Assembly: GCA_018817515.1 (NCBI GenBank)
Contig: JAHIUD010000044.1
Coordinates: 7,031 to 71,030 of the forward strand
DNA: 64,000 nt
From: Pseudomonadota bacterium
GTDB taxonomy: Bacteria; Desulfobacterota; Desulfovibrionia; Desulfovibrionales; Desulfovibrionaceae
Reading direction: 5' to 3'
This document shows positions 4,246 through 44,330 of the stretch, in pieces. The stretch's first letter is position 1. Every line of letters begins with the position of its first letter. Both the position numbers and the translations under genes were made by a program. Under the pieces are notes generated by a model that searched no databases, was not told the DNA's origin, and was given only the letters and a program-made list of their open reading frames with translations.

Positions 4246-4257
4246 GAGAAGGACACC

Positions 4258-4964: not shown

Positions 4965-4974
4965 GGAGGACGCC

Positions 4975-5364: not shown

Positions 5365-5377
5365 GCGGGAGGACATC

Positions 5378-6565: not shown

Positions 6566-6606
6566 GAACAGGTCCAGGACCAAGTGAAGCAGCCAGGAGA
6601 CGCGCC

Positions 6607-7854: not shown

Positions 7855-7862
7855 GGTGACCC

Positions 7863-9335: not shown

Positions 9336-9345
9336 GGAGGCTGCC

Positions 9346-10311: not shown

Positions 10312-10321
10312 GAGGCGCGCC

Positions 10322-11284: not shown

Positions 11285-11296
11285 AAGGAGGCCCTC

Positions 11297-21978: not shown

Positions 21979-21984
21979 GCAGGG

Positions 21985-27137: not shown

Positions 27138-28301
27138 TCACTTTGGCGGGGTAAGTCCGGTGGTCCAGCCCAGCTCGCGCAGGCGCATGGCAATCGCGCG
27201 GGCGGCCAGGGCGTGGGCGTGGGCGTTCCAGTGGCCGTCGGTTTTGAAGGCAAAGGGCTGGTGGTGCTGTCCGAAGTCCCTGCTGAACACCGGGTGCAGG
27301 TCCATGAAGGGGATGGAGAGCCGCGCGGCCTCCTCTGCCGCCATGCGGTTCAGGCGGAGCGCACCTGTGGTGTAGTCCTGGGCCTGGGCGCTGCCCGCTT
27401 CACCCCGCTCGATGGGTCCGCGCACGCCGTCCATGACCAGGAGCAACCTAACCCCGGCCTGGGCTGTTTCCGCAGCCAGCCGCCCGAAGAGATACGCCGT
27501 GGCGCGGCGGTCCAGGGCCTCGCGCCCGGCCAGGTCGCTGATGTCGATGTTGGCCTGGTACTTGCCTGGCTGTTCCTGCTGCAGGAAAAGTCGGCGCAAG
27601 CCCTCGAAGCGCACCTGCCGCCCGTAGGCCAGGTAGCGCCAAGTGGCGCTCAGGTCGCGGATGCGTGAGGTCAGGCCCTGCCGGTACGACGCTGGCGTGA
27701 GCTCCGTCACGGAACCACCGGCTCCCTCGCCCTGTTCCAGGCGCAGGTGCAGAAAGCTCTTGGTGTACATGCCCGGCACGTCGCGCCAGGATTCGTCAAA
27801 GTCATTGTGCACCAGAAGCACCACGAGCACGTCCGGCCTGGCTGGCAGGGCGGCCTTGCGGGCCATGTGCAGATACTGCGAGAGCGGCGCGCCGCTTGCG
27901 CCGTAGCGGTACACCTCCGTGCCCGGGCCCAGGTCCCGTTCGAGGTCTTCGGCCATACTCTGATCCGGCGGCACCTGCAGGGCCTCCACGAACGAGTCGC
28001 CAACCAGGGCGATGCGCTGCTGGCCGGGAGTGCGTGCAAGCGGATAGTCCGCGCGGGCCGAGTTCCAGCCCTGGGCGTTGATGCTGAAGGGCGCGCGCAC
28101 GTCTCCCGACCAGTACGTGCCGCGCTGGCCGGGCCTGTGGCGCAGCACGCCGTCGATGAAGGCTGGTGCAGGCAGGTCCGGGGCCGGGACCACGAAGCGG
28201 AAGAACAGCTCCGCAGCCAGCAGCAGCACGAGCAGGCTGGCGGGAACGAGCAGGAGGCTTGTGAGCAGCTCGGAATGTTTGCGGGCGAAGCTCTGGGACA
28301 T
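27138..28301 (-). CDS. membrane-anchored SGNH/GDSL-family hydrolase or acyl-esterase
   Basis: Start at MSQSF with an N-terminal TM anchor. SGNH blocks VGDSF, GASGAP, HNDFDE and DGHWN. The 693-aa ORF in the track was trimmed. Confidence 0.65.
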   Translation of the reverse strand: MSQSFARKHSELLTSLLLVPASLLVLLLAAELFFRFVVPAPDLPAPAFIDGVLRHRPGQRGTYWSGDVRAPFSINAQGWNSARADYPLARTPGQQRIALVGDSFVEALQVPPDQSMAEDLERDLGPGTEVYRYGASGAPLSQYLHMARKAALPARPDVLVVLLVHNDFDESWRDVPGMYTKSFLHLRLEQGEGAGGSVTELTPASYRQGLTSRIRDLSATWRYLAYGRQVRFEGLRRLFLQQEQPGKYQANIDISDLAGREALDRRATAYLFGRLAAETAQAGVRLLLVMDGVRGPIERGEAGSAQAQDYTTGALRLNRMAAEEAARLSIPFMDLHPVFSRDFGQHHQPFAFKTDGHWNAHAHALAARAIAMRLRELGWTTGLTPPK

Positions 28302-28484
28302 GAAACCTCTGGGTCGCGGCTTTCTTGGAGGGCGGCCAGGGCGTGGGCTGGGCGCTTGCGTTCCCGGCCCGCCACCCTGTACATGGGGATGTCGGCGCCT
28401 TTGATGGCGCGAATTGTCTATACGAAAGACCAGCACCGCAGGCAAGGCCTGGGACACGGCCTGGGCCTGGGTCAGGGAGGATTC

Positions 28485-29246
28485 ATGCGCATCATCTCGT
28501 GGAACGTCAACGGCTACCGCGCCGTGCTCCAGAAGGGCTTTGTGGACTGGCTGGCCGCCTGCGGGGCGGACGTGGTCATGCTCCAGGAGACCAAGGCCGA
28601 GCCGGAGCAGATCTCCGAGGCCGAGCGCGGCCCGGCGGGCTACGAGGGCCTGTGGAACTGGTCCAAGGGCCGCAAGGGCTATTCCGGCACGGCCTGCCTG
28701 TACAAAACCGAGCCTCTGGCCCACTCCTTTGGCCTGGGCGACCCGCGCTACCGGGGCGAGGGCCGGGTGGTGCACCTGGAGTACCCGGACTTCCACCTGT
28801 TCAACATCTACTTCCCCAACGGGCAGAAGGATGAGGAGCGCCTGGGCTACAAGCTCGGCTTTTACGACGCCTTTCTGGCCCAGGCCGAGGAGCTGCGCAA
28901 GGACAAACCCATCGTGGTCGGCGGCGACTTCAACACCGCGCACACCGCCATCGACCTGAAGAACCCCAAGGCCAACGAGAAGACCTCGGGCTTTTTGCCC
29001 ATCGAGCGCGCCTGGCTCGACAAGTTCGTGGCCCACGGCTACGTGGACACCTTCCGGCTGTTTGAGCCCGGCCCAGGGCATTATTCGTGGTGGAGCTACC
29101 GCTACAACGCCCGCATGAACAACGCCGGGTGGCGCATCGACTATTTTTTCGTGTCCGAGGAGCTGCGGGACCGGGTCAAGCGTGCCTGGATCGAGCCGGA
29201 TGTGCAGGGCTCGGACCACTGCCCGGTGGGTGTGGAGATCGTTTAG
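28485..29246 (+). CDS. xth: exodeoxyribonuclease III
   Basis: MRIISWNVNGYRA, VVMLQETK, GGDFNTAHT and SDHCPV. RBS GGAGGA. Confidence 0.93.
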   Translation: MRIISWNVNGYRAVLQKGFVDWLAACGADVVMLQETKAEPEQISEAERGPAGYEGLWNWSKGRKGYSGTACLYKTEPLAHSFGLGDPRYRGEGRVVHLEYPDFHLFNIYFPNGQKDEERLGYKLGFYDAFLAQAEELRKDKPIVVGGDFNTAHTAIDLKNPKANEKTSGFLPIERAWLDKFVAHGYVDTFRLFEPGPGHYSWWSYRYNARMNNAGWRIDYFFVSEELRDRVKRAWIEPDVQGSDHCPVGVEIV

Positions 29247-29529: not shown

Positions 29530-30417
29530 CTAAATAGTCTTGAGCAGGCTCGATGTATAGCTGTTGATGGTGCTGCTGGAGATATTATTCGCATAGTAGG
29601 TCTTGTAATTGCTTTCCTTGGCCTTGATGGCCGCCTGCACTTCGCTCAGCTCGAGCGTGCCATCCTTGTCCGTGTCCAGCTTGTCGAAGGCTGTGGTTGA
29701 AAGGGCGGCCTCGGTGCGGGACAGACTTCCGTCCTTGTCCGCGTCCTTGTTCGTGACGAAGCTGACTGCGGCCTTTGCGGAATACGTGCTGTCGCTTGCC
29801 GCGGGCGTGAGCTTGGTGTTCTCAAGCAGGCTTGCCAGCGTGTTGGAAATGCTGCTGCTGGTGCCATTGGTCTCGTAGAAGGCCTCTACGGTCGACTCCT
29901 GGTCCGTAAGGCCGGCGCGGATTTCCTTCTGGCTGAGCACGCCGTTGCCGTCCGTGTCCAGCTTGTCGAAGGCTTTCGCGGAGAGGCCTGCCTCGGTGCT
30001 GGAGAGAGTGCTGTTCCCGTCCTTGTCGTTTTCCTTGATGTACTTTGCGGCGGCGAGGTTGGCGTAGGTGTCCGTGAGCGAGCCTGCCGAGTCCTCGAGC
30101 AACGACGTGGTATTGTCGTTTTTGCTGCTGGCCTTCCTGTTCGTGTAGTATGCCTGGATGGCGGCATCCTGGCCCTTGAGGCCGTCCTTCATCTCCGAAA
30201 GGTCGATCTTGCCGTTCTTGTCGGCGTCGAGCTTGTCAAAGGCCTCCTGGGAAAGGGTGACCTCGTCGATGGTCAGGCACTTGTCCTTGTCCTTGTCGTT
30301 GTCCTTCACGTATTTGGCGGCGGCCAGATTGGAGTACGTGCCTTCGGGCAGGCCCGAGGTCGCGTCACCGTTGGCGTACATATACTGCAAGTTGGCCAGC
30401 TTGGGATTGATGCGCAT
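29530..30417 (-). CDS. EF-hand repeat protein (three ~80-aa tandem units, each with two DxDxDG-type loops)
   Basis: Start at MRINPK with GGGGGGAAAA upstream. Loops DNDKDKDKCLTIDE, DADKNGKIDLSE, ENDKDGNSTLS, DTDGNGVLSQKE, NKDADKDGSLS and DTDKDGTLELSE. The 608-aa ORF in the track was trimmed. Confidence 0.75.
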   Translation of the reverse strand: MRINPKLANLQYMYANGDATSGLPEGTYSNLAAAKYVKDNDKDKDKCLTIDEVTLSQEAFDKLDADKNGKIDLSEMKDGLKGQDAAIQAYYTNRKASSKNDNTTSLLEDSAGSLTDTYANLAAAKYIKENDKDGNSTLSSTEAGLSAKAFDKLDTDGNGVLSQKEIRAGLTDQESTVEAFYETNGTSSSISNTLASLLENTKLTPAASDSTYSAKAAVSFVTNKDADKDGSLSRTEAALSTTAFDKLDTDKDGTLELSEVQAAIKAKESNYKTYYANNISSSTINSYTSSLLKTI

Positions 30418-30561
30418 AATTTTCCCCCCTGGATGTTTGCTGCGTAGCGTGCAGAATTCGGGCCAGGGCGTGCGGCGGCAGAAAGCTCCCTTGCCAGCTT
30501 TGGCACGGCGGGCTATGTTTCGAGGTACCGTGCTAAACCCCATACCCAAGCGGAGCCTGTC

Positions 30562-31308
30562 ATGAAACGAGCGATGGTCCTGACCCTGGCGCTGAGCGTA
30601 TTTTCCACCCCGGCCCTGGCTGGCTGGGCCGATATGCTGGACAAGGTGCAGACGCAGCTGCCTGCGGCCTCTTCGTCCTCTTCCAGTGGCATCAACGCCA
30701 ACCTGTCCGAGCTCGACGCCAGCAAGGGGCTCAAGGAAGCCCTGGCCAAGGGCACCCAGAAGGCCGTGGCCGCGCTGGGCAAAAGCGACGGTTATTTCGG
30801 CAACCAGGCCGTGAAGATTCTGCTGCCCGAGTCGCTGCAGAAGCTGGAGACGCCCCTGCGCCTGGCCGGACAGGGCAAGCTTGTGGATGACCTTGTGCTG
30901 GCCATGAACCGCGCGGCGGAGAAGGCCGTGCCCCAGGCTGCGAACATCCTGGGCGATGCCGTGAAGAACATGAGCGTGCAGGACGCCAAGGGAATTCTCT
31001 CCGGACCGCAGGACTCCGCCACGCAGTATTTCCGCAAGTCCAGCGGAACGAAGATCGGCGAGATGATGCAGCCCATCATCACCAAGGCCATGGACAGCGT
31101 GGGCGTGGGCAAGGCCTTCAACAAGCTGGCCGCCAACCCGCTGGCCGCGGGCCTGGCCCAGAACTACGGCCTGGACCTGAACGGCTACGTCAACGCCAAG
31201 GCCCAGGACGGGCTGTTTACGCTCATCGCCCAGGAGGAGAAGAGCATCCGCGAAAACCCGGCTGCGCGCACCACGGAGATTCTGAAGAAGGTCTTCGGCG
31301 GGAGCTAG
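30562..31308 (+). CDS. DUF4197-like periplasmic protein
   Basis: Signal peptide MKRAMVLTLALSVFSTPALA. Composition and length match DUF4197 as recalled (GLKEAL...). Confidence 0.65.
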   Translation: MKRAMVLTLALSVFSTPALAGWADMLDKVQTQLPAASSSSSSGINANLSELDASKGLKEALAKGTQKAVAALGKSDGYFGNQAVKILLPESLQKLETPLRLAGQGKLVDDLVLAMNRAAEKAVPQAANILGDAVKNMSVQDAKGILSGPQDSATQYFRKSSGTKIGEMMQPIITKAMDSVGVGKAFNKLAANPLAAGLAQNYGLDLNGYVNAKAQDGLFTLIAQEEKSIRENPAARTTEILKKVFGGS

Positions 31309-31321
31309 GGGATAACAACAC

Positions 31322-31349
31322 GGCGGCCCGGACATCCGCCCGGGCCGCC
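31322..31349. terminator. GC hairpin between convergent genes (possible bidirectional terminator, weak U-tracts)
   Basis: ggcggcccgg-acatccgc-ccgggccgcc. Confidence 0.4.
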
Positions 31350-31369
31350 TCAACATTTGAAGTCAATCC

Positions 31370-32714: not shown

Positions 32715-34280
32715 TCAGGAGGCGGTGGAGAAGCCCAGGATGCTCATCAATGTGCCAAAGGCTGGCGGCCTCAGCACGCCTATATATATCAATATAACAA
32801 ATAGGAACGTCATAACATAGAATACCGTCAGGTAGAGTGCAATGGAATTCTTGACCATCCATTTGAGGCCCTCTGCGGGCGAGTAGCGTTGATCCTGGCG
32901 GTTTGCCCAGCGTTGGTTGGGCAGCCGGAAGAGCAGGTAGACCTTCACCGCGGCGTTCACCATTTGGTTGATGTACAGCACGAATGGATAGCTCATTTCG
33001 ATGCGTCGATCATGGTAGAAGATGAGGCAGGCCAGGAACAGGCGCGTGAGCATGACCCAGAGCAGGTACGAGGTCCAGTAGGCCTTGCTGACGATGAACC
33101 CGGCAAAGAGCAGGGCCAGGGGCGCGGCCAGGGAAGTCCACATGGCGATGCGCTGGTCCATGATGCACCACCAGATGAAGAAGCCCACGCGCCGGGGCCC
33201 CAGGGCGATGGCCCGGGCGCCGTTGCGGAGCATGTTGCCGCTCCAGCGCAGCAGGTTCTGGACCATGCGGCTGTACATGTCCTCCGCGCGGATGGTGTCC
33301 ACGGTCCAGCACATGGCGTCGGGCACGTAGAGCATTTCCGCGCGGTCCTTCAAGAGCGCGTACCAGGTGCTTTTGTCGTCGCCGGAGAGGAAGCGGAAGC
33401 GGCCCCACAGCCAGTGGTCAAGGCTGTCGGCCTCGATAAGGCGGATGAACTGGAGGTCCGTGACCTTCTTGGCGCGGAAGATGGACAGCCGCCCGGTGAG
33501 GGTGAGCACCTTGCCCGCCAGGGCGTGGGACTGCATGGCCATGTGCCGCTGGGCGAAACGCAGGTCGAACCAGCGGCGCAGCAGCTTCGGCCCATAGAGG
33601 ATGGGCTGCTCGTCGGTGGTCAGGGCGTGCATGTTCGGCCTGAGGGCGAACAGCGGCAGGCAGCGCTTGAGGCAGCCGGGGCCCAGGATGGTGTCGCCGT
33701 CGATGAAGACCACGGGCGTGTCGCGGCCGATCTTCTGGCGCGAGATGGCCCGCAAGGCCAGTCCGATGGCGATGCGCTTGCCCGGCTGGTTCTGGCGCAC
33801 GAAGACCACCTCGAGCTTGATGTTCCTGCCGAAGCGGTTGACGCTCTCCTGGATGATCTTTTCGTCCGCTGTGGTGCCGGACCCTACGAAGATGCGCGCG
33901 GGCACGCCGATGCGCTGAACCTCGTGGATGATGGCCAGGATGACCTTCTCGGTGACCACGCGCTCCTCGTAGAAGGTGGTCATCATGAACACGACTTCCT
34001 CGGGCCGCCAGCCGTGGTTCCAAAGGTAGTCGGCCTTGCCGCGCAGCTTGGGGAAGACGACCCTGCCGTAGATGATGGCGCGCACGAAGTGGGTGGTCCA
34101 CCAGACATAGCGCCAGATGCCCAGGTAGGCCATGACCAGGATCCACTGGCCCCGGTCCGCGTCCCAGATGTTGTTGGGGAGGTTGAGAAAGCCCACGACC
34201 ATGACGCCGAAGTACAGGAAGAGCTTGAGCAGCTCCTCCGCCTTCCAGCGGAAGGGACCCTGGTGTGCTACCCGTGCCAT
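32715..34280 (-). CDS. alg8: Alg8-like family-2 glycosyltransferase (polymannuronate/alginate synthase catalytic subunit)
   Basis: Blocks shared with P. aeruginosa Alg8 as recalled: GIWRY, THFVR, LRFAQRH, LTGRLSIFRAK, DSLDHW..FRFLSGDDKSTW, YVPDA, DQRIAMWTSL, YINQ..KVYLLFRL. Confidence 0.85.
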   Translation of the reverse strand: MARVAHQGPFRWKAEELLKLFLYFGVMVVGFLNLPNNIWDADRGQWILVMAYLGIWRYVWWTTHFVRAIIYGRVVFPKLRGKADYLWNHGWRPEEVVFMMTTFYEERVVTEKVILAIIHEVQRIGVPARIFVGSGTTADEKIIQESVNRFGRNIKLEVVFVRQNQPGKRIAIGLALRAISRQKIGRDTPVVFIDGDTILGPGCLKRCLPLFALRPNMHALTTDEQPILYGPKLLRRWFDLRFAQRHMAMQSHALAGKVLTLTGRLSIFRAKKVTDLQFIRLIEADSLDHWLWGRFRFLSGDDKSTWYALLKDRAEMLYVPDAMCWTVDTIRAEDMYSRMVQNLLRWSGNMLRNGARAIALGPRRVGFFIWWCIMDQRIAMWTSLAAPLALLFAGFIVSKAYWTSYLLWVMLTRLFLACLIFYHDRRIEMSYPFVLYINQMVNAAVKVYLLFRLPNQRWANRQDQRYSPAEGLKWMVKNSIALYLTVFYVMTFLFVILIYIGVLRPPAFGTLMSILGFSTAS

Positions 34281-37081
34281 GCCTGCTGCCGGATCAGGAA
34301 GAAGAGGTTCACGGGCGTGACCTCGCCGCCCAGCAGGCCGGTCATGGCGGGAGTCTCCTCCTTGCCGTTCAGCGTTTCATAGACCAAGAGGGAGCGCACG
34401 GCCTTCTGGGTGTCGAAGGTGCCGCCCTTCTTGGCGTACTCGAACCCGGCACGGGCCCGTTTCTCATCGATGGGGGCCGTGGACTTGGCGAACTCGTAGT
34501 GGATGTCGCTCTTGGCGATGTGCTCGCGCAGGAAATCGTAAGCCTTGAGCACGGGCTCCTTGAACTGCCCGGTGATGAGCGCAATCTCCAGCCAGGACTC
34601 CAGGCCGTAGGCCTGGTAGTGCAGCGAGTTGCGCTCCTTGTGGTCCAAGGTCTCGCCCGTGGTCGCGTCGATGTTGGTCTTGAGGTGCGCCTGGGCCTCG
34701 GCCAAGGCCTTGTCGTAGGTGGCGTGGTCGTCCAGGGCGCGCGCCAGGAGCAGAAGCATCTTGATCTGGTGGGTGCGGTAGTTGTTGAACTGGCTCTTCT
34801 CGCCGTACTTCCAGGCCAGCTTGGCGTCGCGCATGCGCGCGAACCAGCCGAGCACGCTGGCGCGGTCCTGCTCGCTCATGTCGCAGCGCGCCAGGTCAAA
34901 GGCGTAGACCATCTTGTCCAGGCGCGTCTCGTCGATGGGATGTCCGGTGGGCTTGTTGGTCTTGGCCCAGGCCAGCAGGATGGCCGTGGCCCGGTCCAGG
35001 TACTTGCGCTCGCCCAGGACCCGGAAGGCCAGGGCCAGGTTCGCGGCGTTGTCGGCGTCCTGGAAGGCGCGGCGCGAGGCCATGAAGTCCGGGTCGTTCT
35101 TGTCCGTCTGGCCTGCGCTTTTGAGCGTGGCCACCGGGACCGGGGCCTTGTTCACGGCCTTTTCGGCCTCTGCGGCCAGTTGGGCGCGCGCGGGTGCGCT
35201 CAGGCTCTCGGGCTTGATCTGTGTGGAGAAGTGGCCCGGCCAGAGCAGGGACAGGTTGTCCTTGCAGGAGGTGGCGGCATCGGGCCAGACAGCGGCCCTG
35301 GTTGCGTTCTGCTGCCCGGACACGGGCACCAGCACTTGAGTTCCGGCCTCGGTCCGCTTGCTGGTGGGGCCCTGCATGCGCACAACCTCCCGGTATTCAT
35401 AACTCATGGCCTGGTTGACGGCCTTGGCTTCCTCGGCCTTGTCTGCGTCGGAGCGGAAGAAATTGAACAGGCTGGCCAGCAGCCGGTTCGAAGGGTTGCG
35501 GGAGAAGTTCACGGTGCACGGGGTGCCGGTCTCGATGTCCTTGACCTCGACATTGCGCCCGTCCTTGACGAAGAACAGCGTGGCCACGGCGGTGCGGTCC
35601 ACGGTGGTGCGCCAGTGATAGCGGCTGTCGGTTTCGTTGATGAACCCTCGCGAGCGGTCGATCTGGATGACCCGGGCCTCACGCTCGATGTTGAGCGAGG
35701 GGATGAAGACCTTGGCCACGGAGCCCAGGCGCACCTGGGTGGACTCGGCCTGGGTCAGGAATACCTCCAGGTAGCGGCTGTCGGAGCGCTCGAGCACGGC
35801 CAGATTGTCGCCGCGGTCCACGGTGTTGCCGGGGGTCTTGAGCACGCGCACCACATGGCCGTCAAAGGGCGCGCGCAGGATGAGCTCGCCGCCATTTTCG
35901 CCGTCATTCGGGCCGCCGTTCCCGCCGCCGACTCCACGGCCTGCGTTGCCCAGGCCGCTTTCCAGCTCGGCCACGCTTTTGCGCGCGGCCTCGATCTCGC
36001 CATTGAGGCCATAGCCCCGGCCCTCGATGCGGTCGCCGGAGAAGAACAGCCCGGAGCGGTTGAGTCCGCTTATGGCGACATGCGCGACACGCAGGTCGTT
36101 CTTGGCCAGGGCCAGGTCGTTCTCCAGCTTCTCCACCAGCTGCTGTGAGGATTCCAGCTCGGACTTGCTGATGACTCCCTGAGACTCCAGGGCCCTTTTT
36201 CGCTTGAGGTCATTCTTGGCCAGGGCGAGGTCCTGGCCCACGGCGGTGACGCGGTCCGAGGCGCTGGTCAGGCGCGAGTCGCCGACCTTGCCGTAGATGC
36301 CGCGGGCGGCATGTTCCGCGTTGCGTTGCGCCAGCAGGGTCTCCAGGCGGTAGCGGGCCGTGTTCAGGGCGATGAGGGCGTTGTAGCCAGCGCCGCCGTT
36401 GTTGGCGCCCTGCCCCATGAGCTTGATGACCGGCTCGCCCAGTTTGACGCTGCGGTCCACCGGGATAATGAGCCGTTCGAAGATGCCCGACACCGGAGCC
36501 ACAAGGGGTTCTGTGGGGGCAACGACGACCCCTGCCTCCACTTCGATGCGCATGAAGTTGGCGTAGAGCGTGATGCCGATGTAGGTGAGGATGCCGCCGC
36601 CCAGCAGCAGGTACATGAGCAGGATGAGCATGCGCTTGGTGCTGCGGTGTGCCGGAACGGTATTGGCCTCTTCCACGAGGTCCATGTCCACGGGGGTGAC
36701 GGGCATGTCCACCCGACGGATGGCGTCCTGGAAGCAGGCCATCTCGCCGGCGAGCAGCCCTTCGCTGAAGTACTTGAGCAATTCGAGGTTTTCTTCGCTG
36801 ATGTCCTCGAACTGCACCGCCAACATTCCGTCACCGTCGCGCGGTGCGCGGACCACCTTGGAGGCCTGGCTGAAACTGATGTTGAAACCGCGAAAGTCGA
36901 TGAGTAGCTTGGGATTGAAGATCTCGTCCTTCTTCAATATCCCTTGGTAGCCATCCAGGCGGAAGCCACCCATGCTCCAGTCCGCAGCCTTGTACAGCTT
37001 CCCCTCGACCTCCACGTGAATGGGCACGGAGAGGCGGTAGTGGAGCCGCTGGCTGGGTGTTTCTCGCGTTACTTCAGGCAC
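34268..37081 (-). CDS. Alg44-like PilZ / TM / HlyD-type periplasmic adaptor fused to a C-terminal alginate-lyase-like (PL5/AlgL-type) domain
   Basis: PilZ motifs RLHYR and DWSMGG, plus LLKYFSEGLLAGE as in Alg44. One TM segment, then a coiled-coil/HlyD-like region. The C-terminal ~300 aa carry LLAW, FNNYRTHQ and ERNSLHYQAYGLESW, resembling the Alginate_lyase family. 13-nt overlap with alg8. Confidence 0.78.
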   Translation of the reverse strand: MPEVTRETPSQRLHYRLSVPIHVEVEGKLYKAADWSMGGFRLDGYQGILKKDEIFNPKLLIDFRGFNISFSQASKVVRAPRDGDGMLAVQFEDISEENLELLKYFSEGLLAGEMACFQDAIRRVDMPVTPVDMDLVEEANTVPAHRSTKRMLILLMYLLLGGGILTYIGITLYANFMRIEVEAGVVVAPTEPLVAPVSGIFERLIIPVDRSVKLGEPVIKLMGQGANNGGAGYNALIALNTARYRLETLLAQRNAEHAARGIYGKVGDSRLTSASDRVTAVGQDLALAKNDLKRKRALESQGVISKSELESSQQLVEKLENDLALAKNDLRVAHVAISGLNRSGLFFSGDRIEGRGYGLNGEIEAARKSVAELESGLGNAGRGVGGGNGGPNDGENGGELILRAPFDGHVVRVLKTPGNTVDRGDNLAVLERSDSRYLEVFLTQAESTQVRLGSVAKVFIPSLNIEREARVIQIDRSRGFINETDSRYHWRTTVDRTAVATLFFVKDGRNVEVKDIETGTPCTVNFSRNPSNRLLASLFNFFRSDADKAEEAKAVNQAMSYEYREVVRMQGPTSKRTEAGTQVLVPVSGQQNATRAAVWPDAATSCKDNLSLLWPGHFSTQIKPESLSAPARAQLAAEAEKAVNKAPVPVATLKSAGQTDKNDPDFMASRRAFQDADNAANLALAFRVLGERKYLDRATAILLAWAKTNKPTGHPIDETRLDKMVYAFDLARCDMSEQDRASVLGWFARMRDAKLAWKYGEKSQFNNYRTHQIKMLLLLARALDDHATYDKALAEAQAHLKTNIDATTGETLDHKERNSLHYQAYGLESWLEIALITGQFKEPVLKAYDFLREHIAKSDIHYEFAKSTAPIDEKRARAGFEYAKKGGTFDTQKAVRSLLVYETLNGKEETPAMTGLLGGEVTPVNLFFLIRQQAWHG

Positions 37082-37582
37082 TTGAATGAAACCTCATGTT
37101 GCTGCTAAACGTACCTTCATGTGGGGCGGAGGTGATGTCCTGTCGCCCGAGGAAATGCTAAGCAATAATCATTCCGAAGAATATGCCAGTGTTGCGGATG
37201 CCCTTACCAAACATATGCGCAAGCAGAGTGTGCGATATCCAGCCTGACCCCTGTCAAATTGTTATCGGCAGAAGCGGTGGCGACATTAGTCTTGCTGATC
37301 GATTGGCGCAAGCTGGTGGGGACCCCTCGTGCCGGAAGATTACCCGAAAGATGTGCTGCACATCCAGCTGCTGTCAAGAGGGGCTGCCGAATTCCTCTTG
37401 ACGGCGAGGCTTGGCGTGGATAAGCAACATCTTCGTAACCGCCCTGCGTGACTGGCGAACGTGGAAGAAACCACGAGGAAGCGCAGGGTGCCCTAAGCCG
37501 CTCGCCTGGGCTTGCATCCCTCGAAACAGAGGGGTGCAACACCGACACCCTCCATCCGTTGGAGGCCCATTCGGAGGCGCCC

Positions 37583-38785
37583 ATGCGACAATTCGCCCAA
37601 GCCACCACAGCCACCTTCACTGACCTGCGCCGCGACTTCTCGGTGTCTGCCGCCGTTGCCGGACTCATCGCCGTCGTCGTTTCCTATGGCGGTCCGGCAG
37701 CCATCATCTTCCAGGCCGCAGACAAGGCGGGCCTGTCCTCCGGCCAGGTCGCCAGCTGGATCTGGGCCATCTCCATCGGTTCCGGCCTGGCCGGGGTGGG
37801 TTTGAGCCTGCGCTACCGCGTGCCGGTCATCGTGGCCTGGTCCACCCCCGGCGCCGCGCTCTTGGCGGCAGGCTGGGCCGCATACTCCTACCCCGAAGCC
37901 ATCGGGGCCTTTCTGCTGGCAGGCGTCGCCATCACCATCTTCGGGGCCACGGGGCTGTTCTCCGCGCTCATGGAGCGCATCCCCAGCGCCGTGGTCGCGG
38001 CCATGCTGGCGGGCATCCTGTTTCGCTTCGGGGTGGATGTGTTCACCTCGCTGCGCGGTGCGCCCCTGCTCGTGACGCCCATGCTGGCCTGCTACCTGGC
38101 CATGAAGCGCCTCAAGCCCCGCTACGCCATCCTGACAACCCTCTGCACCGGACTGGCCGCCGCCGCCGCCCTGGGCCTGCTGCACCTGGACAGCCTGGAC
38201 GCCGCCCTGGCCCGGCCCGAGCTCACCACTCCGGTCTTCAGCCTGGGCGCGCTCATCGGCCTGGGCGTGCCGCTGTTCATGGTGACCATGACCGGCCAGA
38301 ACGCTACCGGGCTCGGCGTATTGCGCACCGCAGGCTACAAGACGCCCGGCGGACCGCTCGTGGCCGCCACCGGTATCCTGTCCACGCTGCTTGCACCCTT
38401 TGGCGCGCACGGCATCAACCTCGCCGCCATCACCGCCGCCATCTGCACCGGACCCGAGGCGCACCACAGTCCCGACCGGCGCTACGTGGCCGGCGTGGTC
38501 TGCGGACTGGCCTATCTCGTCATCGGGCTTTTCGGCGCCACGCTGGTGGGAATCTTCGCCGCCCTGCCAGCAGCGCTTGTGGCCGCCATCTCCGGGCTCG
38601 CCCTCTTCGGGGCGCTCATGGCCGGACTCACTCAGGCCATGGAGGTAGAGGCACAGCGCGAGGCCGCGCTGGTGACCTTCCTGATCACCGTGTCCGGGGT
38701 CACGCTCTGGGGCATCGGCTCGGCCTTCTGGGGACTCGTCGGCGGCGTGCTCGCCAATGCCGCCCTGACAGCGCGCCGAGGCTAG
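37583..38785 (+). CDS. benE: BenE-family benzoate/aromatic-acid membrane transporter
   Basis: Start at MRQFAQ (RBS GGAGG). About 12-TM protein with a BenE-like N-terminus (FTDLRRDFSVSAAVAGLIAVVVSYGGPAAIIFQAA). Confidence 0.82.
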   Translation: MRQFAQATTATFTDLRRDFSVSAAVAGLIAVVVSYGGPAAIIFQAADKAGLSSGQVASWIWAISIGSGLAGVGLSLRYRVPVIVAWSTPGAALLAAGWAAYSYPEAIGAFLLAGVAITIFGATGLFSALMERIPSAVVAAMLAGILFRFGVDVFTSLRGAPLLVTPMLACYLAMKRLKPRYAILTTLCTGLAAAAALGLLHLDSLDAALARPELTTPVFSLGALIGLGVPLFMVTMTGQNATGLGVLRTAGYKTPGGPLVAATGILSTLLAPFGAHGINLAAITAAICTGPEAHHSPDRRYVAGVVCGLAYLVIGLFGATLVGIFAALPAALVAAISGLALFGALMAGLTQAMEVEAQREAALVTFLITVSGVTLWGIGSAFWGLVGGVLANAALTARRG

Positions 38786-39535: not shown

Positions 39536-40672
39536 ATGCGTTTCTACGTCGTCTTCACCCTCATCTTCATGTTCATGCTCCTTGTGGTTTTGGCCCAGGT
39601 CCACCGCCAGGCCAGGCAGTCGCGGCGGGCCTATGTGCTGACGCTTCTGGGCGGGCTTTTTGTCAGTATGTTCTTGGCCAGCACCCGGCTCATGCCCGAG
39701 ACCTGGCCCATGGCCCTGGCCCGCCCGGCCTGGTGGCTGGGCTATGGGACTTTTGGCCTGGTGGCCTACATGTTTCTGTTCCAGGTCGTACTGTTTGGCA
39801 TCGAGCAGGTCTCACGGCTGGTCTTTCCTCCTTTGGCGCCTCGCTTGCGTTCGCCGCGGGCCCTGCTGGCGGTGATCGTCCTGACGCTGCTGACGGTGGG
39901 CTGGGGCGTGTTTGAGGGGGGCGATGTGCGCGTGCTCTCGCGGCAGATCAGCTCGTCCAAGGTGCTGCGGCCCGTGCGGGTGCTGGTCATCAGCGACCTG
40001 CACCTGGGCGCGCTGACCCTGGACTCCCGGCTGGAGTCCCTGGTGCGGCTGGTGAAGGGCCAGGACCCGGATCTGGTGCTGCTGGTGGGCGACATCGTCA
40101 ACGACCATCCCGAGTCTTTGGAGCCGCAGGCCGCCATGTTGCGGAGCCTGAAGCCGCGCCTGGGCATGTTTGGTGTGTTCGGCAATCATGAGCGCTACGA
40201 GGGTGACGCCAGAAGCGCCCAGGTCTTCCGCTGGGCCGGGGCCGAGCTGTTGCGCGGTCGGCTGGTCGATCTGCCGGGCACGGGTATGGAACTGCTGGGC
40301 GTGGACGACCCGGGCCGTTCGGGCGACGTCGGCGGGGTCGTCGCGCAGGAGATCCGCGCCCTGGCGCGGGACATCGACCCGGCGCGCTTCCACATCCTCA
40401 TGAACCACCGGCCCCTTGCCTGGCGCGAGGCCGTGCAACCGCTGGGCATCGAGGTCATGTTCTCGGGCCATACCCACCGGGGCCAGCTCTATCCGTTCTA
40501 TCTCGTGGTGAAGCTGTTCAACCCCTACATGGGCGGCTGGTACGAGGAGGGCGGCCTGCTTCTGGGTGTGAGCGCGGGCGCGGGCTTCTGGGGTCCGCCC
40601 ATGCGCGTGCTGGCCCCGCCGGACGTGCTTGTGCTCGACGTGCTTCCTGCCGCCCCGGCCGCGGTGCAGTGA
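39536..40672 (+). CDS. membrane-anchored metallophosphoesterase (YkuE/YaeI-like)
   Basis: N-terminal TM segments, then the calcineurin-like motifs ISDLHLG, GDIVND, GNHE and GHTHRGQ. Confidence 0.85.
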   Translation: MRFYVVFTLIFMFMLLVVLAQVHRQARQSRRAYVLTLLGGLFVSMFLASTRLMPETWPMALARPAWWLGYGTFGLVAYMFLFQVVLFGIEQVSRLVFPPLAPRLRSPRALLAVIVLTLLTVGWGVFEGGDVRVLSRQISSSKVLRPVRVLVISDLHLGALTLDSRLESLVRLVKGQDPDLVLLVGDIVNDHPESLEPQAAMLRSLKPRLGMFGVFGNHERYEGDARSAQVFRWAGAELLRGRLVDLPGTGMELLGVDDPGRSGDVGGVVAQEIRALARDIDPARFHILMNHRPLAWREAVQPLGIEVMFSGHTHRGQLYPFYLVVKLFNPYMGGWYEEGGLLLGVSAGAGFWGPPMRVLAPPDVLVLDVLPAAPAAVQ

Positions 40673-40713
40673 CCCCCGGGCATGGACCACGGCCGCGTTG
40701 TCGAGTAGGGTGC

Positions 40714-42186
40714 ATGTTCAAACGGTGCAACCTCCCACCTGGAGTCCCTGTGGACAGACCCGTCTCCCGACGCCTCGGCATCACCGGCAAGCTGCTGGTC
40801 TGGTGTTTGGTGCTTGTGACGATATTCTACGTCACCACCAGTCTGCTGTTCTTGCGCATCAAAAGCCTGGTCGAGGTCTCAAACGCCATCGTCAACGTCA
40901 ACTATGACATCGACAAGTCCGCCCAGCGCATGATCCAGCAGCTTTTGTCCATGGAGGAGAACCGCAAGCGCTTCGAAATATTGCAGAAGGACGCCTACAT
41001 GGAGTCCTTCCTGGCGGACATGAAGGATTTCGGCAAGACCCTGTCCAGCGTGCTGGAGCGTCACCCGGACTATCGCAAGCCCTGGCAGGAGCTCACCCAG
41101 GAGTTCACCATCGTGCTTTCACGCAGCGGCAACCCGGAAGTCGGCACCCTGCCGGACAAGACCATCACCCGCTGGCTTGAGATCCTCTCGGAAACGCGCC
41201 AGGCCAACCAGGAAGACATGGAAGAGCGCCTGACCGAGCTGGGCGCCAGGAGCCAGACGGCGGTGCGGCTGGGCTTCATCGGACTGGTGGCCAGCATCAC
41301 CATCGGCGTGCTGGGCAGCCTGCTCATCGCCTATCGTCTGAACCTCTCGCTATCGGAGATCCGCCGGGGCATCCGCGAGCTTGGCCGGGGCGAGCCCGTC
41401 CGGCCGGTGCAGGTCACCTCAACGGACGAATTGGGCGACTTGGCCCAGGCCTTCAACAGCATGACCGGCCGGCTCCAGGAAGAGGAGCGCATGCGCCAGG
41501 ATTTCATCGCCATGCTCTCGCACGAGATACGCACGCCGCTCACCAGCATCCGCGAGTCCGTGGCTCTCGTGGCCGATGGAGTCTTTGGCGAGGTCAACGA
41601 GAAACAACACCATTTTTTGGACATTTCCCGGCAGGAGGCCCTGCGGCTGACCAACCTGCTGGAGCGGTTGATGAAGGTCTCCAGCCTGGAGTCCCAGCGT
41701 CTGCGCCTGGTCACGGCGCCGCTGGATGCCTCGGCCCTGGCGCGTGGCGCCGTGGAGCGCTTGCAATCCACGGCTTTGGCCAAGAACATCACGCTGAAGA
41801 CCGAGCTGCCGGACCAGTTCGTTTTCGTGGAGGCCGACCAGGAGCATGTGACCCAGGTGCTGGCCAACCTGCTGGGCAACGCCGTGAAGTTTTCGCCCCC
41901 GGACTCCCTGGTGCGCCTGAGCGTGACGCCGGAGCCCACGGGCAACGCGGTGATCTTCTGCGTGGTCGACGAGGGGCCGGGAATAGCTGCGGAGGAGCAG
42001 GAACGCATCTTCCTCAAGTATTACCGCGAGCCCTCGGTGCGTGGCAGCGTCGCAGGCCTTGGCCTTGGCCTGTCCATCGCCAAGGGCATCGTGGAGGCGC
42101 ATGGCGGGACAATGTGGCTCAACAGCGCGCCGGGCTGCGGGTCGAGCTTTTGCTTTTCCCTTCCCAAGCCGCAGGCGATGGTATAG
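40714..42186 (+). CDS. sensor histidine kinase (2 TM, HAMP, HisKA, HATPase_c)
   Basis: H-box MLSHEIRTPLTSI, plus NLLGNAVKFS, DEGPGI and GLGLGLSIAKG. Start codon is uncertain (40714 versus 40669). Confidence 0.85.
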   Translation: MFKRCNLPPGVPVDRPVSRRLGITGKLLVWCLVLVTIFYVTTSLLFLRIKSLVEVSNAIVNVNYDIDKSAQRMIQQLLSMEENRKRFEILQKDAYMESFLADMKDFGKTLSSVLERHPDYRKPWQELTQEFTIVLSRSGNPEVGTLPDKTITRWLEILSETRQANQEDMEERLTELGARSQTAVRLGFIGLVASITIGVLGSLLIAYRLNLSLSEIRRGIRELGRGEPVRPVQVTSTDELGDLAQAFNSMTGRLQEEERMRQDFIAMLSHEIRTPLTSIRESVALVADGVFGEVNEKQHHFLDISRQEALRLTNLLERLMKVSSLESQRLRLVTAPLDASALARGAVERLQSTALAKNITLKTELPDQFVFVEADQEHVTQVLANLLGNAVKFSPPDSLVRLSVTPEPTGNAVIFCVVDEGPGIAAEEQERIFLKYYREPSVRGSVAGLGLGLSIAKGIVEAHGGTMWLNSAPGCGSSFCFSLPKPQAMV

Positions 42187-42190
42187 AAAT

Positions 42191-42838
42191 ATGGGCATGA
42201 CGAAACGTCCTTTTTTGCCTTGGCTGCCGCTTTGTCCCTCCCTTTCGGCCGCCTTTCCGGCCGTCCTGCTGGTGCTCGTCCTGGGCCTCGCGGGCTGTTC
42301 GTTTTTCGCCCCCAGGCTGGGCGAGGGCACCCAGCAGTCTGGTCCGCGTGCGGACTACGTGCTGGCCGTGGACTCGTACCTGGCCGGACAGTATGAGAAG
42401 GCCGCCAGCATTTTCCAGCGTCTCGCCGGAGAGGAGTCCGCCCCGGTGCTGGCGCGCAAGGCCTATTTCGGTCTTGCTTGCGCGCGCCTGGCCATGGCCA
42501 AGACCCCGGAAGACCTGCGCGCGGGCCTGACCCTCTGGAACACCTGGGTGCAGATGACCCCGGAGAGCCTGACCTCCGAGGACCCGCGCCTGATCACCCC
42601 GCTTTTGCCGCGCCTGTCCGCCTCAAGCAGCCAGTCCAGCCCGCCATTGCTCTCCGAGGCTGAAATCGACCGCGAGCTGGCGCGCTCCAAGCGTTTGGCC
42701 GGATGCCAGGAGGAGAGCGGCAAAACCAAGGATCTGCTGCGCCGGAAGACGGCCGAGGCCGAGGCCCTGCGCAGCCAGCTCAACGCCCTGGAGCGTTTGC
42801 ACCAGGAGATCAGCCACAAGAAGAAGGGCCTGGAGTAG
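42191..42838 (+). CDS. lipoprotein with TPR-like and coiled-coil regions, inserted between kinase and regulator genes
   Basis: Lipobox GLAGC. Start at MGMTKRP, 5 nt after the kinase stop. The C-terminal coiled coil ends 13 nt before the regulator gene. Confidence 0.65.
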   Translation: MGMTKRPFLPWLPLCPSLSAAFPAVLLVLVLGLAGCSFFAPRLGEGTQQSGPRADYVLAVDSYLAGQYEKAASIFQRLAGEESAPVLARKAYFGLACARLAMAKTPEDLRAGLTLWNTWVQMTPESLTSEDPRLITPLLPRLSASSSQSSPPLLSEAEIDRELARSKRLAGCQEESGKTKDLLRRKTAEAEALRSQLNALERLHQEISHKKKGLE

Positions 42839-42851
42839 CCTGCGCACGCCT

Positions 42852-44330
42852 ATGGAAAACTCCAAACAGCCCGTGATCCCCTCCGGCCGGCCCGGCGCCA
42901 CCATCCTCGTGGTGGACGACGACAAGAACATCCTGCAAGTGCTGGAGGCGCGGCTGGCCTTCGCCAAGTACAAGACCCTCACCGCCAGAAGCGCCGAGGA
43001 GGCCGTCGAGGTCCTGGCCGCTCAGCCGGTGGATCTGGTGGTCTCGGACGTGAAGATGCCTGGCATGGGCGGGGTGGGCCTGCTGCGCGAGGTGCTGGCC
43101 CAGTGGCCCCAGGTGCCGGTGATCCTGCTCACCGCCTATGGCAGTATCCCCGACGCCGTCAGCACCATCCGCTCCGGCGCGGCGGACTACCTGACCAAGC
43201 CCTTTGACGGGCACCAGCTTCTGGCCAAGATCGCCGATCTGCTGGGCCGGAGCACGGAAAAATCAGCACCCAAGGCCAAGCACCACAAGTCGTGCTTGAG
43301 CGAGCAGCTCTGGGGCGGCAAAAGCCCGGCCATGCGCGATTTCTACGCCCTCATGGAGCGCGTGGCGCCAACAGACGTCGCCGTGCTCATCCTGGGCGAG
43401 TCCGGCACGGGCAAGGAGCTCATCGCGCGCATCCTGCACGACCAGGGCCCGCGCGCCAAGGGGCCGTTTGTCATAGTGGACTGCGGCTCGACCCAGCCGA
43501 CCCTGCTTGAGAGCGAGCTTTTCGGCCACGTGAAGGGCTCCTTCACCCACGCCGTGCGCGACAAGAAGGGGCTCATGGAGGAGGCCGACGGCGGCACCCT
43601 GGTGCTGGACGAGATCGGCAACATCAGCCCGGAGATGCAGACCCGTCTGCTGCGCTTCCTGCAGGAGCGCACCATCCGCCGCGTCGGCGACACCCGCGCC
43701 ATCCCTGTGAACTGCCGGGTCATCGCCGCCACAAACGCCGATCTGCCCGCCCTGGTCAAGAAGGGCGAGTTTCGCGAGGACCTCTATTTCCGCCTCAAGG
43801 TGGTGACCCTCAAGGTGCCGCCCCTGCGCGAGCGCAAGGAGGACATCCCGCTGTTGACCGAGCGTTTCCTGGAGGCCTTCAGCCAGGATCAGAAGCGGCC
43901 CAAGGTGACGGCCTCGCCCGAGACTCTGCAGGTACTCATGGCCCACAGCTGGCCGGGAAACGTGCGCGAGCTCAAGCACGCCCTGGAGAGCGGCGTGGTG
44001 TTCTGCCGGGGGCAGGTGCTGGAGCCGAAGGATATTCAGCTGGAGCGGGCCGAGACCCTGCACGAGGCGGCCTTGGAGCCCGGTCCCGTGTCCGGTGCCG
44101 GGTCCTCTGGGGCTGGGCCTGGAGTCGGCCAGACCGAGGCCGCCTCTGCCGCCAGCGCGGATTCGCTTTCCCTTGAAGACAACGAGCACCAGGCCATCAT
44201 CCGCGCCCTGGAGCGCACTGCCTGGGTCAAGAAGACCGCCGCCGACCTGCTCGGCATCAGCCGCCGGGCCATCCACTACAAGATCAAGAAGTACAACATC
44301 CAGATTCCCGGCAAGGATCAGGACGAGTAG
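42852..44330 (+). CDS. sigma-54-dependent response regulator (NtrC family: REC, AAA+, Fis HTH)
   Basis: REC (ILVVDDD, VVSDVKMPG, TKP). Walker A GESGTGKE, GAFTGA-variant GSFTHA, and ELFGH. HTH TAADLLGISRRAIHYKIKKY. Confidence 0.93.
   Translation: MENSKQPVIPSGRPGATILVVDDDKNILQVLEARLAFAKYKTLTARSAEEAVEVLAAQPVDLVVSDVKMPGMGGVGLLREVLAQWPQVPVILLTAYGSIPDAVSTIRSGAADYLTKPFDGHQLLAKIADLLGRSTEKSAPKAKHHKSCLSEQLWGGKSPAMRDFYALMERVAPTDVAVLILGESGTGKELIARILHDQGPRAKGPFVIVDCGSTQPTLLESELFGHVKGSFTHAVRDKKGLMEEADGGTLVLDEIGNISPEMQTRLLRFLQERTIRRVGDTRAIPVNCRVIAATNADLPALVKKGEFREDLYFRLKVVTLKVPPLRERKEDIPLLTERFLEAFSQDQKRPKVTASPETLQVLMAHSWPGNVRELKHALESGVVFCRGQVLEPKDIQLERAETLHEAALEPGPVSGAGSSGAGPGVGQTEAASAASADSLSLEDNEHQAIIRALERTAWVKKTAADLLGISRRAIHYKIKKYNIQIPGKDQDE

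Follow-up and report, generated by a model that had tools for sequence, protein, structure and literature searches.

A predicted Alg44-like co-polymerase fused to a PL5-like lyase domain in a compact, probably alginate-type operon of the Desulfovibrionaceae

Introduction

It has long been asked whether the lyase that accompanies alginate biosynthesis is a part of the synthesis machine or a free housekeeping enzyme of the periplasm. A gene in a 64,000-nucleotide stretch of a genome assembly assigned to the Desulfovibrionaceae (GCA_018817515.1, contig JAHIUD010000044.1, positions 7,031 to 71,030; hereafter the window) bears on this question. A preliminary description of the sequence had read it as a single 937-residue polypeptide that joins the architecture of the co-polymerase Alg44 to an alginate lyase domain of the AlgL type. 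Our analysis shows that such a protein, consisting of a PilZ domain, a transmembrane helix, a membrane fusion protein (MFP) region and a lyase domain, is real and recurs among uncultured bacteria. We consider it likely, with a probability of about 0.7, that this protein belongs to a minimal polyuronate synthase gated by cyclic di-GMP (c-di-GMP), whose product would most likely be polymannuronate (an alginate-type polymer) and whose lyase would be covalently tethered to the co-polymerase.

Results

One reading frame from PilZ to lyase

The features discussed below are collected in Table 1. The fusion gene has exactly the coordinates given in the preliminary description and lies on the minus strand, as an uninterrupted open reading frame (ORF) of 2814 nt without a stop or a change of frame; the plus-strand reading of the same interval gives a translation riddled with stops and was discarded. 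All the motifs quoted in that description are present: the PilZ motifs RLHYR (aa 12-16) and DWSMGG (aa 34-39) at the N-terminus, and the lyase blocks LLAW (aa 702), FNNYRTHQ (aa 765) and ERNSLHYQAYGLESW (aa 816) towards the C-terminus. Between them lies one transmembrane segment (aa 150-173), which is the sole strongly hydrophobic stretch of the protein and has the basic residues HRSTKR on its N-terminal, cytoplasmic side. The topology is consistent with a cytoplasmic PilZ domain and a periplasmic location of everything after residue 176. The 13-nt overlap with the downstream gene for an Alg8-like glycosyltransferase of family 2 (GT2) is likewise present, and it recurs in the called gene coordinates of four related loci (L001, L015, L016 and L018).

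Table 1. Features of the fusion gene, its operon and its immediate surroundings (window coordinates)
Feature	Position	Strand	Evidence
Fusion gene (PilZ, transmembrane helix, MFP, linker, lyase)	34268..37081	minus	937 aa; GTG start at 37081, TAG stop 34268-34270; ORF list and translation
Cytoplasmic Alg44-type PilZ domain (aa 9-113)	36743..37057	minus	Pfam PilZ and family profile A3
RxxxR c-di-GMP motif (R12-L-H-Y-R16)	37034..37048	minus	Sequence; aligns to Alg44 QRQFAR
D/NxSxxG c-di-GMP motif (D34-W-S-M-G-G39)	36965..36982	minus	Sequence; aligns to Alg44 DLSAGG
Single transmembrane helix (aa 150-173)	36563..36634	minus	Only Kyte-Doolittle segment >1.6; model helix aa 146-176
Predicted periplasmic HlyD/EmrA-type MFP region (aa 180-545), lipoyl and beta-barrel halves around a long alpha-hairpin	35447..36544	minus	Pfam, NCBIfam, profile A2
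Predicted long MFP alpha-hairpin (helices aa 231-300, 306-343, 359-381)	35939..36391	minus	Full-length AlphaFold2 model, local pLDDT 58-87
Fusion linker (aa 546-605), ~60 aa	35267..35446	minus	Predicted disordered; variable length among orthologues
Predicted periplasmic PL5-like (alpha/alpha)-toroid uronate-lyase domain (aa 606-937)	34271..35266	minus	PF05426, AlphaFold2, Foldseek, family profile
N766-N767-Y768, PL5 'NNH' with Tyr for His (AlgL H202, A1-III H192)	34778..34786	minus	Hidden Markov model (HMM) alignment to Smlt1473 and PanPL
H771, near-invariant His 3 residues past the NNH position	34769..34771	minus	Core and distant alignments
R817...H821-Y822...Y825: putative Arg, catalytic-Tyr (AlgL Y256) and substrate-binding-Tyr (AlgL Y259) equivalents	34607..34633	minus	HMM alignment to PL5 'R..ALHYH'
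13-nt overlap (ATGGCACGGGTAG), fusion-gene end and GT2 ATG	34268..34280	minus	Read from sequence
Alg8-like membrane GT2, 521 aa	32715..34280	minus	Pfam Glyco_tranf_2_3 E 1.3e-30; DGD, GDD, LLRW motifs; N- and C-terminal transmembrane segments
AlgD-like GDP-mannose 6-dehydrogenase, 436 aa	31370..32680	minus	Best PDB match P. aeruginosa 1mfz/1mv8, E 1.5e-90
Terminator-like GC-rich hairpin just past the dehydrogenase stop	31322..31349	minus	Terminator scan; 12 bp stem with 11 GC pairs
Convergent DUF4197 gene	30562-31308	plus	Pfam 1e-73
Divergent intergenic region, presumed promoter	37082..37447	.	Between the fusion gene and the BenE-family transporter gene
BenE-family transporter gene	37448-38785	plus	Pfam BenE 7.9e-139

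An Alg44-type PilZ domain followed by a long-hairpin adaptor

When single sequences were compared with PDB chains by phmmer, neither the PilZ nor the lyase part found a match, so profiles were needed for both. The Pfam PilZ model covers aa 11-105 at 22.4 bits, 0.1 bit below its cut-off of 22.5. This borderline call is rescued by a profile built from twelve N-terminal domains of the family (A3): against all PDB chains, the only significant matches were the Alg44 PilZ structures 4xrn, 4rt0 and 4rt1 (E 6e-9 to 1.4e-8), and none of the other PilZ structures appeared at E <= 1. The match runs from end to end and aligns the RxxxR motif, the DxSxxG motif and the helix that follows (LxYfxxxLxxGE), with R12 and R16 invariant across the alignment. 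Both c-di-GMP motifs are therefore intact, as had been noted. Three distant fusions (P0011, P0171 and P0182) have lost the arginines of RxxxR (KELYLK, TALHLQ and KDLYLN, respectively) and kept the rest of the PilZ fold; judging from these sequences, this subgroup may be independent of c-di-GMP.

The region after the transmembrane helix, described earlier as a long coiled-coil or HlyD-like segment, proved to be just that. Pfam HlyD_3 matches aa 402-496 (E 2e-8), Biotin_lipoyl is also matched, and the NCBIfam EmrA, RND_mfp and HlyD subfamily models all match below their cut-offs. A full-length family profile (A2) finds EmrA (4tko, E 1.2e-9, aa 195-446) as well as LipC and HlyD, and a long hairpin is predicted. 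The AlphaFold2 model of the whole protein, of low overall confidence (predicted local distance difference test score, pLDDT, of 64), was used for secondary structure only. At this level it is coherent: a PilZ barrel (aa 21-91), the membrane helix (aa 146-176), strands, three long helices and further strands (aa 399-527). Its pLDDT falls below 50 at aa 528-598, after which a helical domain follows. The linker in this region is the least conserved segment of the family and carries indels among orthologues.

The C-terminal domain has the fold of alginate lyases

The Pfam family Alginate_lyase (PF05426) matches aa 631-838 with an E-value of 1.4e-17 and 64.5 bits (cut-off 22.2); the match is clear, but this Pfam family covers several polysaccharide lyase (PL) families. 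An AlphaFold2 model of aa 590-937 alone, computed with 17 homologues, is all-alpha and of high confidence (pLDDT 92, predicted TM-score 0.91). Searched against the PDB with Foldseek, it returned 44 matches at E<1e-3, every one of them an (alpha/alpha)-toroid uronate or glycosaminoglycan lyase (PL38, PL5, PL17, PL15 and glycosaminoglycan lyases). The best was the PL38 enzyme BoPL38 (E 4.6e-6, TM-scores 0.64/0.59). The PL5 matches comprised A1-III (up to 0.62/0.62), Smlt1473 (0.60/0.67), AlgL (0.58/0.60) and PanPL, and N-domains of PL17 and members of PL15 were found too. With the family lyase profile, the best PDB matches were all PL5, though weak: Smlt1473 (E 0.005), PanPL (0.009) and A1-III (0.16).

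Thus, both the Pfam family and the structural comparison relate the C-terminal region to AlgL, A1-III and other alginate-lyase folds. The more specific label of an AlgL-type PL5 enzyme stands in part: PL5 is the best match by profile, though a weak one, the relation is distant, and the fold is equally near PL38. On its sequence and predicted structure, the domain belongs to the alginate-lyase toroid superfamily as a distant member resembling PL5. Of the cysteines conserved in the family, the window protein keeps Cys606 and Cys733, but in its clade the two adjacent ones of TGCC are replaced, the sequence there being TGQF (aa 837-838, window positions 34568-34573).

Fused, split and lyase-free forms

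A word-indexed search retrieved nine full-length orthologues with 61-92% identity, and a more distant protein of 889 aa (P0011, 28% identity) with the same architecture, encoded as an in-frame fusion followed by a GT2 gene. Cluster members come from metagenome-assembled genomes (MAGs) of Desulfovibrionales (Desulfovibrionales bacterium GWA2_65_9, Humidesulfovibrio sp. and Desulfovibrio sp.), and the genome loci of relatives include a Desulfocurvus MAG among others. We searched 1.84 billion representatives exhaustively with a profile and found 648 relatives of the lyase domain. The high-scoring core of about 43 clusters (at 50% identity) includes 11-12 proteins of 868-1047 aa in which the lyase is C-terminal. 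All ten of the fused core proteins that were scanned have HlyD/lipoyl and Alginate_lyase matches, and three reach the PilZ cut-off. A scan of metagenomes added 19 loci with the N- and C-terminal parts in one frame and no intervening stop, mostly in the order dehydrogenase, fusion, GT2; the five inspected more closely range from 39 to 64% GC. Public annotations call the fusion proteins 'alginate lyase family protein', 'hypothetical protein' or 'multidrug resistance efflux pump'.

The same components also occur apart. In L003, L008-L011 and 9-12 metagenome loci, the co-polymerase and lyase parts are neighbouring genes in different frames; in L003 and L008-L011 the Alg44-like gene and the lyase gene are joined by a GT2 gene. 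The free lyases carry N-terminal signal peptides, which the fused form lacks. In Desulfovibrio oxyclinae the operon is otherwise the same, but the co-polymerase is 564 aa long, corresponds to aa 1-563 only and has no lyase. In rough neighbour-joining trees without support values, fused proteins fall into at least four clades interleaved with free lyases, a pattern that suggests repeated fusion or fission. The best explanation for the fusion is that it arose by the joining of two genes that are adjacent and separate elsewhere.

Several individual loci add detail. In L014, a fused gene (1-2199) is followed by a free lyase paralogue (P0019, 2187-3407, 65% identical, with an apparent signal peptide) and then by GT2 and dehydrogenase genes; with one fused and one free copy, the lyase module has been duplicated there. 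The 1047-aa protein P0164 has an AMIN domain (aa 583-670) between adaptor and lyase. AMIN domains are associated with peptidoglycan, and the insertion hints at a lyase positioned at the cell-wall layer. Split clusters in Pseudomonadota MAGs (L009, 5830-20475, and L003, 15654-20122) are far better equipped: besides a PL7 lyase, which has MopE or F5/8-type-C modules, they encode two beta-helix proteins, an epimerase of the AGE family, GMP and CotH. Fused-type loci are bare modules of two or three genes. Fusion seems to accompany minimisation of the cluster.

A three-gene operon for a probable mannuronate polymer

The fusion gene is the first of three genes in an operon, followed by those for the Alg8-like GT2 and the AlgD-like dehydrogenase and by a terminator-like hairpin. 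The layout is identical in L001, L015, L016 and L018. The idea of an Alg44 architecture joined to a lyase is thus supported from within the protein, by an N-terminal domain that is specifically Alg44-like, and from its surroundings, by the adjoining GT2 gene and the dehydrogenase gene after it. For the GT2, 1749 homologues were found; the label Alg8 rests on the names given by JGI to several of them at about 50% identity ('glycosyltransferase Alg8' or 'mannuronan synthase'). NCBIfam offered no equivalog match for Alg8, Alg44 or AlgL.

Compared with the canonical gene set (algD-alg8-alg44-algK-algE-algG-algX-algL-algI-algJ-algF-algA), the operon covers only the AlgD-, Alg8- and Alg44-plus-lyase functions. 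Split-type relatives add genes for AlgA-like GMP/PMI proteins, one or two beta-helix (epimerase-like) proteins and PL7 alginate lyases, and this company supports an alginate-type polymer. A UDP-glucose dehydrogenase, and with it a glucuronan product, is disfavoured by the AlgD structures being the best match of the dehydrogenase and by the GMP/PMI and PL7 genes of the relatives. We conclude that the product is most likely a mannuronate-based polymer of the alginate type. Since the window operon has no epimerase, AlgA or AlgI/J/F gene, plain polymannuronate is the simplest guess.

Active-site residues and selection on the lyase domain

The family motif L-[HY]-Y-H aligns on the L-H-Y-H of PL5 that contains the catalytic tyrosine, and the family NNH aligns on the NNH of PL5. 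In this alignment Y822 corresponds to Y256 of AlgL, Y825 to Y259, N767 to N201 and Y768 to H202. In AlgL, Y256 acts as the acid/base, Y259 binds substrate, H202 stabilises the anionic intermediate and R249 neutralises the C-5 carboxylate (PMC8829089). Y822 is invariant in all 43 core representatives, and Y825 is Tyr or Phe. Across the family N767, H771, R817, Y822 and W705 are essentially invariant; the histidine at H771 is shared by 40 of the 43 core representatives and, among distant ones, by 82 of about 103 that were aligned, and it is invariant in alignments A2 and A4.

Tyr768 in place of the NNH histidine, pointed out in the preliminary description, is confirmed. NNY is restricted to the window protein (P0001) and three others (P0002, P0010 and P0018, at least 84% identity). 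His is found in all remaining orthologues, in the distant fusions and in almost every free homologue. The position is nevertheless variable: His occurs in 29 core representatives, Tyr, Leu and Trp in four each and Gln in two, with Trp predominating in distant relatives. Natural Lys and Gln variants at this histidine have been described in marine PL5 homologues (PMC11890756).

Within the NNY clade, a codon alignment gives the lyase domain a dN/dS of 0.20, the MFP region 0.15, PilZ 0.075 and the linker 0.19; a value of 1.0 obtained for the MFP region in an ungapped codon comparison was an artefact of compensating indels. Lyase divergence from outgroups is 41.8% in the NNY clade against 41.3% in its NNH sister clade, that is, without acceleration. 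Neither the dN/dS values nor the rate comparison shows relaxed selection on the NNY-clade lyase.

Discussion

The proposed machine and its export route

In the reading that we favour, the AlgD-like dehydrogenase would make GDP-mannuronate, and the Alg8-like GT2 would polymerise it and pass the chain over the inner membrane, as homology suggests for both. The Alg44-type PilZ domain, in which the motifs are present, would bind c-di-GMP and license polymerisation. The long-hairpin adaptor of the HlyD/EmrA type would span the periplasm, probably coupling to an outer channel of the TolC family. On its flexible linker of about 60 residues, the PL5-like lyase would be held near the polymer exit at a fixed 1:1 ratio with the co-polymerase. 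MFP polypeptides end C-terminally at their membrane-proximal barrel, which, together with the flexible linker, would place the lyase close to the inner membrane, where the chain emerges. A 'homeostasis' role, the clearing of stray polymer from the periplasm, has been described for AlgL. By analogy, the tethered enzyme could degrade stray periplasmic chains and/or trim or release the product.

How the polymer might leave the cell is suggested by what accompanies the operon. Alg44-type co-polymerases are paired with AlgK and AlgE, and the window system departs from this: among the window ORFs scanned with Pfam there was no TolC, AlgK or AlgE beside the operon, and no AlgK/AlgE-type gene lies near any of the fused loci examined; the one exception among the relatives is L012, an unfused cluster that includes a Sel1 protein. 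The lack of AlgK and AlgE points to probable coupling with a TolC-family channel, and the predicted hairpin has the length typical of adaptors that dock to TolC. Such a channel is encoded in L017, the only locus in which an outer-membrane component was observed: a TolC-family gene (8559-9883), broken into two ORFs that each match PF02321, immediately precedes the fused MFP-lyase gene and its GT2. A tblastn search with this protein against 80 metagenome loci gave no match, and the flanks of four fused loci consisted of housekeeping genes. TolC is essential for the GT2- and MFP-dependent mixed-linkage glucan system BgsA/BgsB/TolC (PMC13438883), and a model of XcsA, the HlyD-like XcsB, the endoglucanase XcsC and TolC has been proposed for cyanobacterial cellulose (PMC12430437). 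By analogy with these systems, exit is possibly of the TolC type, and this is the route we prefer.

A number of observations weigh against the machine as a whole. Each of the synthetic steps, and the cleavage by the lyase, is assigned by similarity; the nature of the polymer is likewise deduced from homology and gene neighbourhood. No AlgA, epimerase or AlgI/J/F gene is present in the window operon, and no TolC-family gene is adjacent to it or to any of the 19 metagenome fusions probed. The low confidence of the full-length model also counts here. In the lyase, R817 sits five residues before the tyrosine, seven being the PL5 spacing, and the position at Tyr-7 (K815) is variable, so that equivalence to the PL5 active site is inexact. 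AlgL with the H202A substitution had no detectable activity in vitro (PMC8829089), and the change to Tyr768 could therefore impair catalysis. Finally, AlgL of P. aeruginosa has been reported not to be associated with the biosynthetic proteins, and tethering is thus not a general requirement.

Alternative explanations

Could the fusion be no more than an assembly or sequencing error that joined an alg44-like gene to a lyase gene? The adjacent split genes of other lineages, together with a linker that is poorly conserved and predicted to be disordered, would fit such an accident. However, the same single-frame fusion is found in some 30 independent assemblies from NCBI, ENA, JGI and Logan, over a range of 39-66% GC; the 2814 nt contain no stop, the linker has the low dN/dS given above, and the fused form is devoid of the signal peptide that marks the free lyases. 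No frameshift or stop divides the gene in two, and the artefact is effectively refuted. Less easily dismissed, although we regard it as rather unlikely, is a polyuronate or other polymer distinct from alginate and mannuronan, which would reduce the Alg names to analogies at the family level. The GT2 has neither a match to a curated Alg8 model in NCBIfam nor a solved relative, the lyase fold is no nearer to PL5 than to PL38, a family acting on both alginate and glucuronan, and its best sequence match, Smlt1473, is a multi-functional polysaccharide lyase according to its PDB entry; the gaps in the operon point the same way. On the other hand, the dehydrogenase is nearer to GDP-mannose 6-dehydrogenase than to the best UDP-glucose dehydrogenase match (1.6e-64), related clusters bring in the GMP/PMI, PL7 and beta-helix genes, the JGI names refer to alginate at about 50% identity, and of the PilZ structures that have been solved, only those of Alg44 are matched by the PilZ domain.

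The polymer may well be of the alginate type and the lyase of the window clade nevertheless catalytically dead, serving as a module that binds, guides or chaperones the polymer from synthase to export path, and we hold this, too, to be improbable. It is suggested by the tyrosine that replaces the intermediate-stabilising histidine, by the in vitro behaviour of AlgL H202A and by the exchanged cysteine pair of the same clade, and purifying selection would fit a binding role equally well. Yet the position is naturally variable, Tyr822, Arg817, Asn767 and His771 are all kept, the clade shows no rate acceleration relative to its NNH sister, and in vivo AlgL H202A was wild-type-like, Y256F and R249A/E being deleterious (PMC8829089). 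Purifying selection and a variable site amid invariant N767, H771, R817 and Y822 do not indicate inactivation. Of the earlier suggestion that the lyase is altered or confined to binding, the replacement of the histidine therefore stands, and the loss of catalysis is weakened by the variability of the site, the restriction to one clade and the purifying selection. As far as these residues can tell, the change to tyrosine most likely modifies the function of the lyase without abolishing it, and a functional domain that is probably catalytic, possibly attenuated or retuned, ranks above one that only binds. A more far-reaching alternative sees in these operons a separate synthase-dependent secretion machine, with the adaptor coupled directly to a TolC-type channel in place of AlgK/AlgE and the lyase obligatory for chain length and release, not a scavenger. 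We regard it as doubtful. If it were true, co-polymerase and lyase would be expected, by Rosetta-stone logic, to be in functional contact in the split systems as well.

Comparison with known systems

In function, the minimal tethered-lyase synthase that we favour would correspond to Alg8/Alg44 together with AlgL. With Alg44 of P. aeruginosa the window protein shares a PilZ domain at the N-terminus, including the RxxxR and DxSxxG motifs, one transmembrane helix and a periplasmic region of the membrane-fusion type, and its gene stands beside those for an Alg8-like GT2 and an AlgD-like dehydrogenase. Alg44, however, is about 389 aa long, whereas the window protein has 937; it also has a much longer hairpin of the EmrA/HlyD kind and the C-terminal lyase. 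Moreover, the fusion gene precedes the GT2 gene, which alg44 follows, and no AlgK/AlgE partner genes were found.

Like the PL5 lyases AlgL, A1-III, Smlt1473 and PanPL, the C-terminal domain is a predicted periplasmic all-alpha toroid of about 330 aa with a PF05426 match and TM-scores of 0.57-0.67, and like algL it is encoded inside a polymer-biosynthesis cluster. It differs from them in its low identity (14-19%) and weak profile E-values (0.005-0.16), in the tyrosine at the His position and in an arginine at Tyr-5 instead of Tyr-7. It differs from AlgL in particular by the near-invariant H771, where AlgL has W205, and by being tethered, whereas AlgL is free. The PL38 enzyme BoPL38 of Bacteroides ovatus (BACOVA_01668) resembles it in its (alpha/alpha) barrel and in a catalytic His-Tyr pair, judged from the H297N and Y298F mutant structures. 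Identity to PL38 is only 13-16%, with a single sequence-profile match (3nfv, E 0.44), and PL38 members are degradative enzymes of gut or marine bacteria with no synthase link, unlike a lyase fused to a co-polymerase.

The nearest organisational parallels are the BgsA/BgsB/TolC and Xcs systems, which also combine a GT2 synthase with an HlyD-like adaptor and c-di-GMP (PilZ) control and have no dedicated TPR/beta-barrel exporter (PMC13438883, PMC12430437); Xcs operons even include a glycan-cleaving enzyme (PMC12430437). They make glucans, and the window system would make a uronate polymer; their c-di-GMP module is on the synthase, and here PilZ is on the adaptor. The cleaving enzyme of the window system is a lyase fused to the adaptor, and its dependence on TolC is conjectural. 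In their survey, Bundalovic-Torma et al. (2020) describe 'atypical' alginate-like operons without algKE and/or algGXLIJF in environmental bacteria, as well as BcsZC of Zymomonas, in which a secretion component is joined to a hydrolase; the passages retrieved make no mention of an Alg44-lyase fusion (PMC7112194). The survey dealt with 1733 genomes as of 2015. By contrast, the members of the fusion family found here come almost entirely from MAGs and metagenomes.

Our literature search, of incomplete coverage and hence yielding absence of evidence only, turned up no described Alg44-lyase fusion and no alginate genes in Desulfovibrio; the fusion is apparently undescribed. All of its parts belong to known families, and what is new is the arrangement, not a principle or a kind of system. 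Its interest lies in the question with which we began: here the lyase is part of the co-polymerase itself, a union that has apparently come about more than once, and the clusters concerned have two or three genes and no dedicated outer-membrane exporter. Their genetic simplicity makes such clusters well suited to finding out what a lyase associated with a synthase does, be it clearing, chain-length control or release. They would also add the Desulfovibrionales and further little-studied lineages to those with alginate-type synthesis; in the biofilms of such bacteria, uronate polymers could affect how metals and calcium are bound, and a compact three-gene cassette might be portable for the production of defined polymannuronate.

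Neighbouring genes in the window

The divergent arrangement with the BenE-family gene is shared with L001, L015 and L018. Within the intergenic region, a sigma-54-like GG-N10-GC element (GGAATGATTATTGCT) lies at about 37154-37168 on the minus strand, some 75-90 nt upstream of the GTG. A histidine kinase is encoded 3.6-7 kb away (40669-44330, plus), together with a response regulator that depends on sigma-54.

Two long minus-strand ORFs beyond the dehydrogenase gene were considered as further operon members and rejected as over-extended. One, of 608 aa (29530-31356), overlaps the plus-strand DUF4197 gene and has a short version in the syntenic L001. Its 3' part of about 200 aa is gene-like, with EF-hand repeats and a sub-threshold lanmodulin-like match, and corresponds to a 202-aa EF-hand gene in L001. 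The conservation of a calcium-binding EF-hand protein beside a polyuronate operon may be meaningful. The other, of 693 aa (27138-29219), overlaps a plus-strand gene of the endonuclease/exonuclease/phosphatase family (27747-29246). Its 3' part of about 400 aa corresponds to an SGNH/GDSL protein that includes an AlgX-type domain and is 402 aa long in L001; the gene lies four genes from the operon and in conserved synteny. This AlgX-like protein from outside the operon could modify the polymer by acetylation.

Further away, a locus for a Tad/Flp-type pilus (2755-12463, plus) encodes a secretin, a TadZ/ParA-like ATPase, a CpaF-type ATPase, two T2SSF proteins and a TPR protein (11297-12463); taken with the polysaccharide module, it suggests a genome region devoted to surface attachment. 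Apparently unrelated are genes for an MprF-like lysyl-phosphatidylglycerol synthase (17781-20336), LarC/LarB-like nickel-pincer cofactor proteins (21214-22737) and an Acyl_transf_3 membrane acyltransferase (15074-16294), all on the minus strand.

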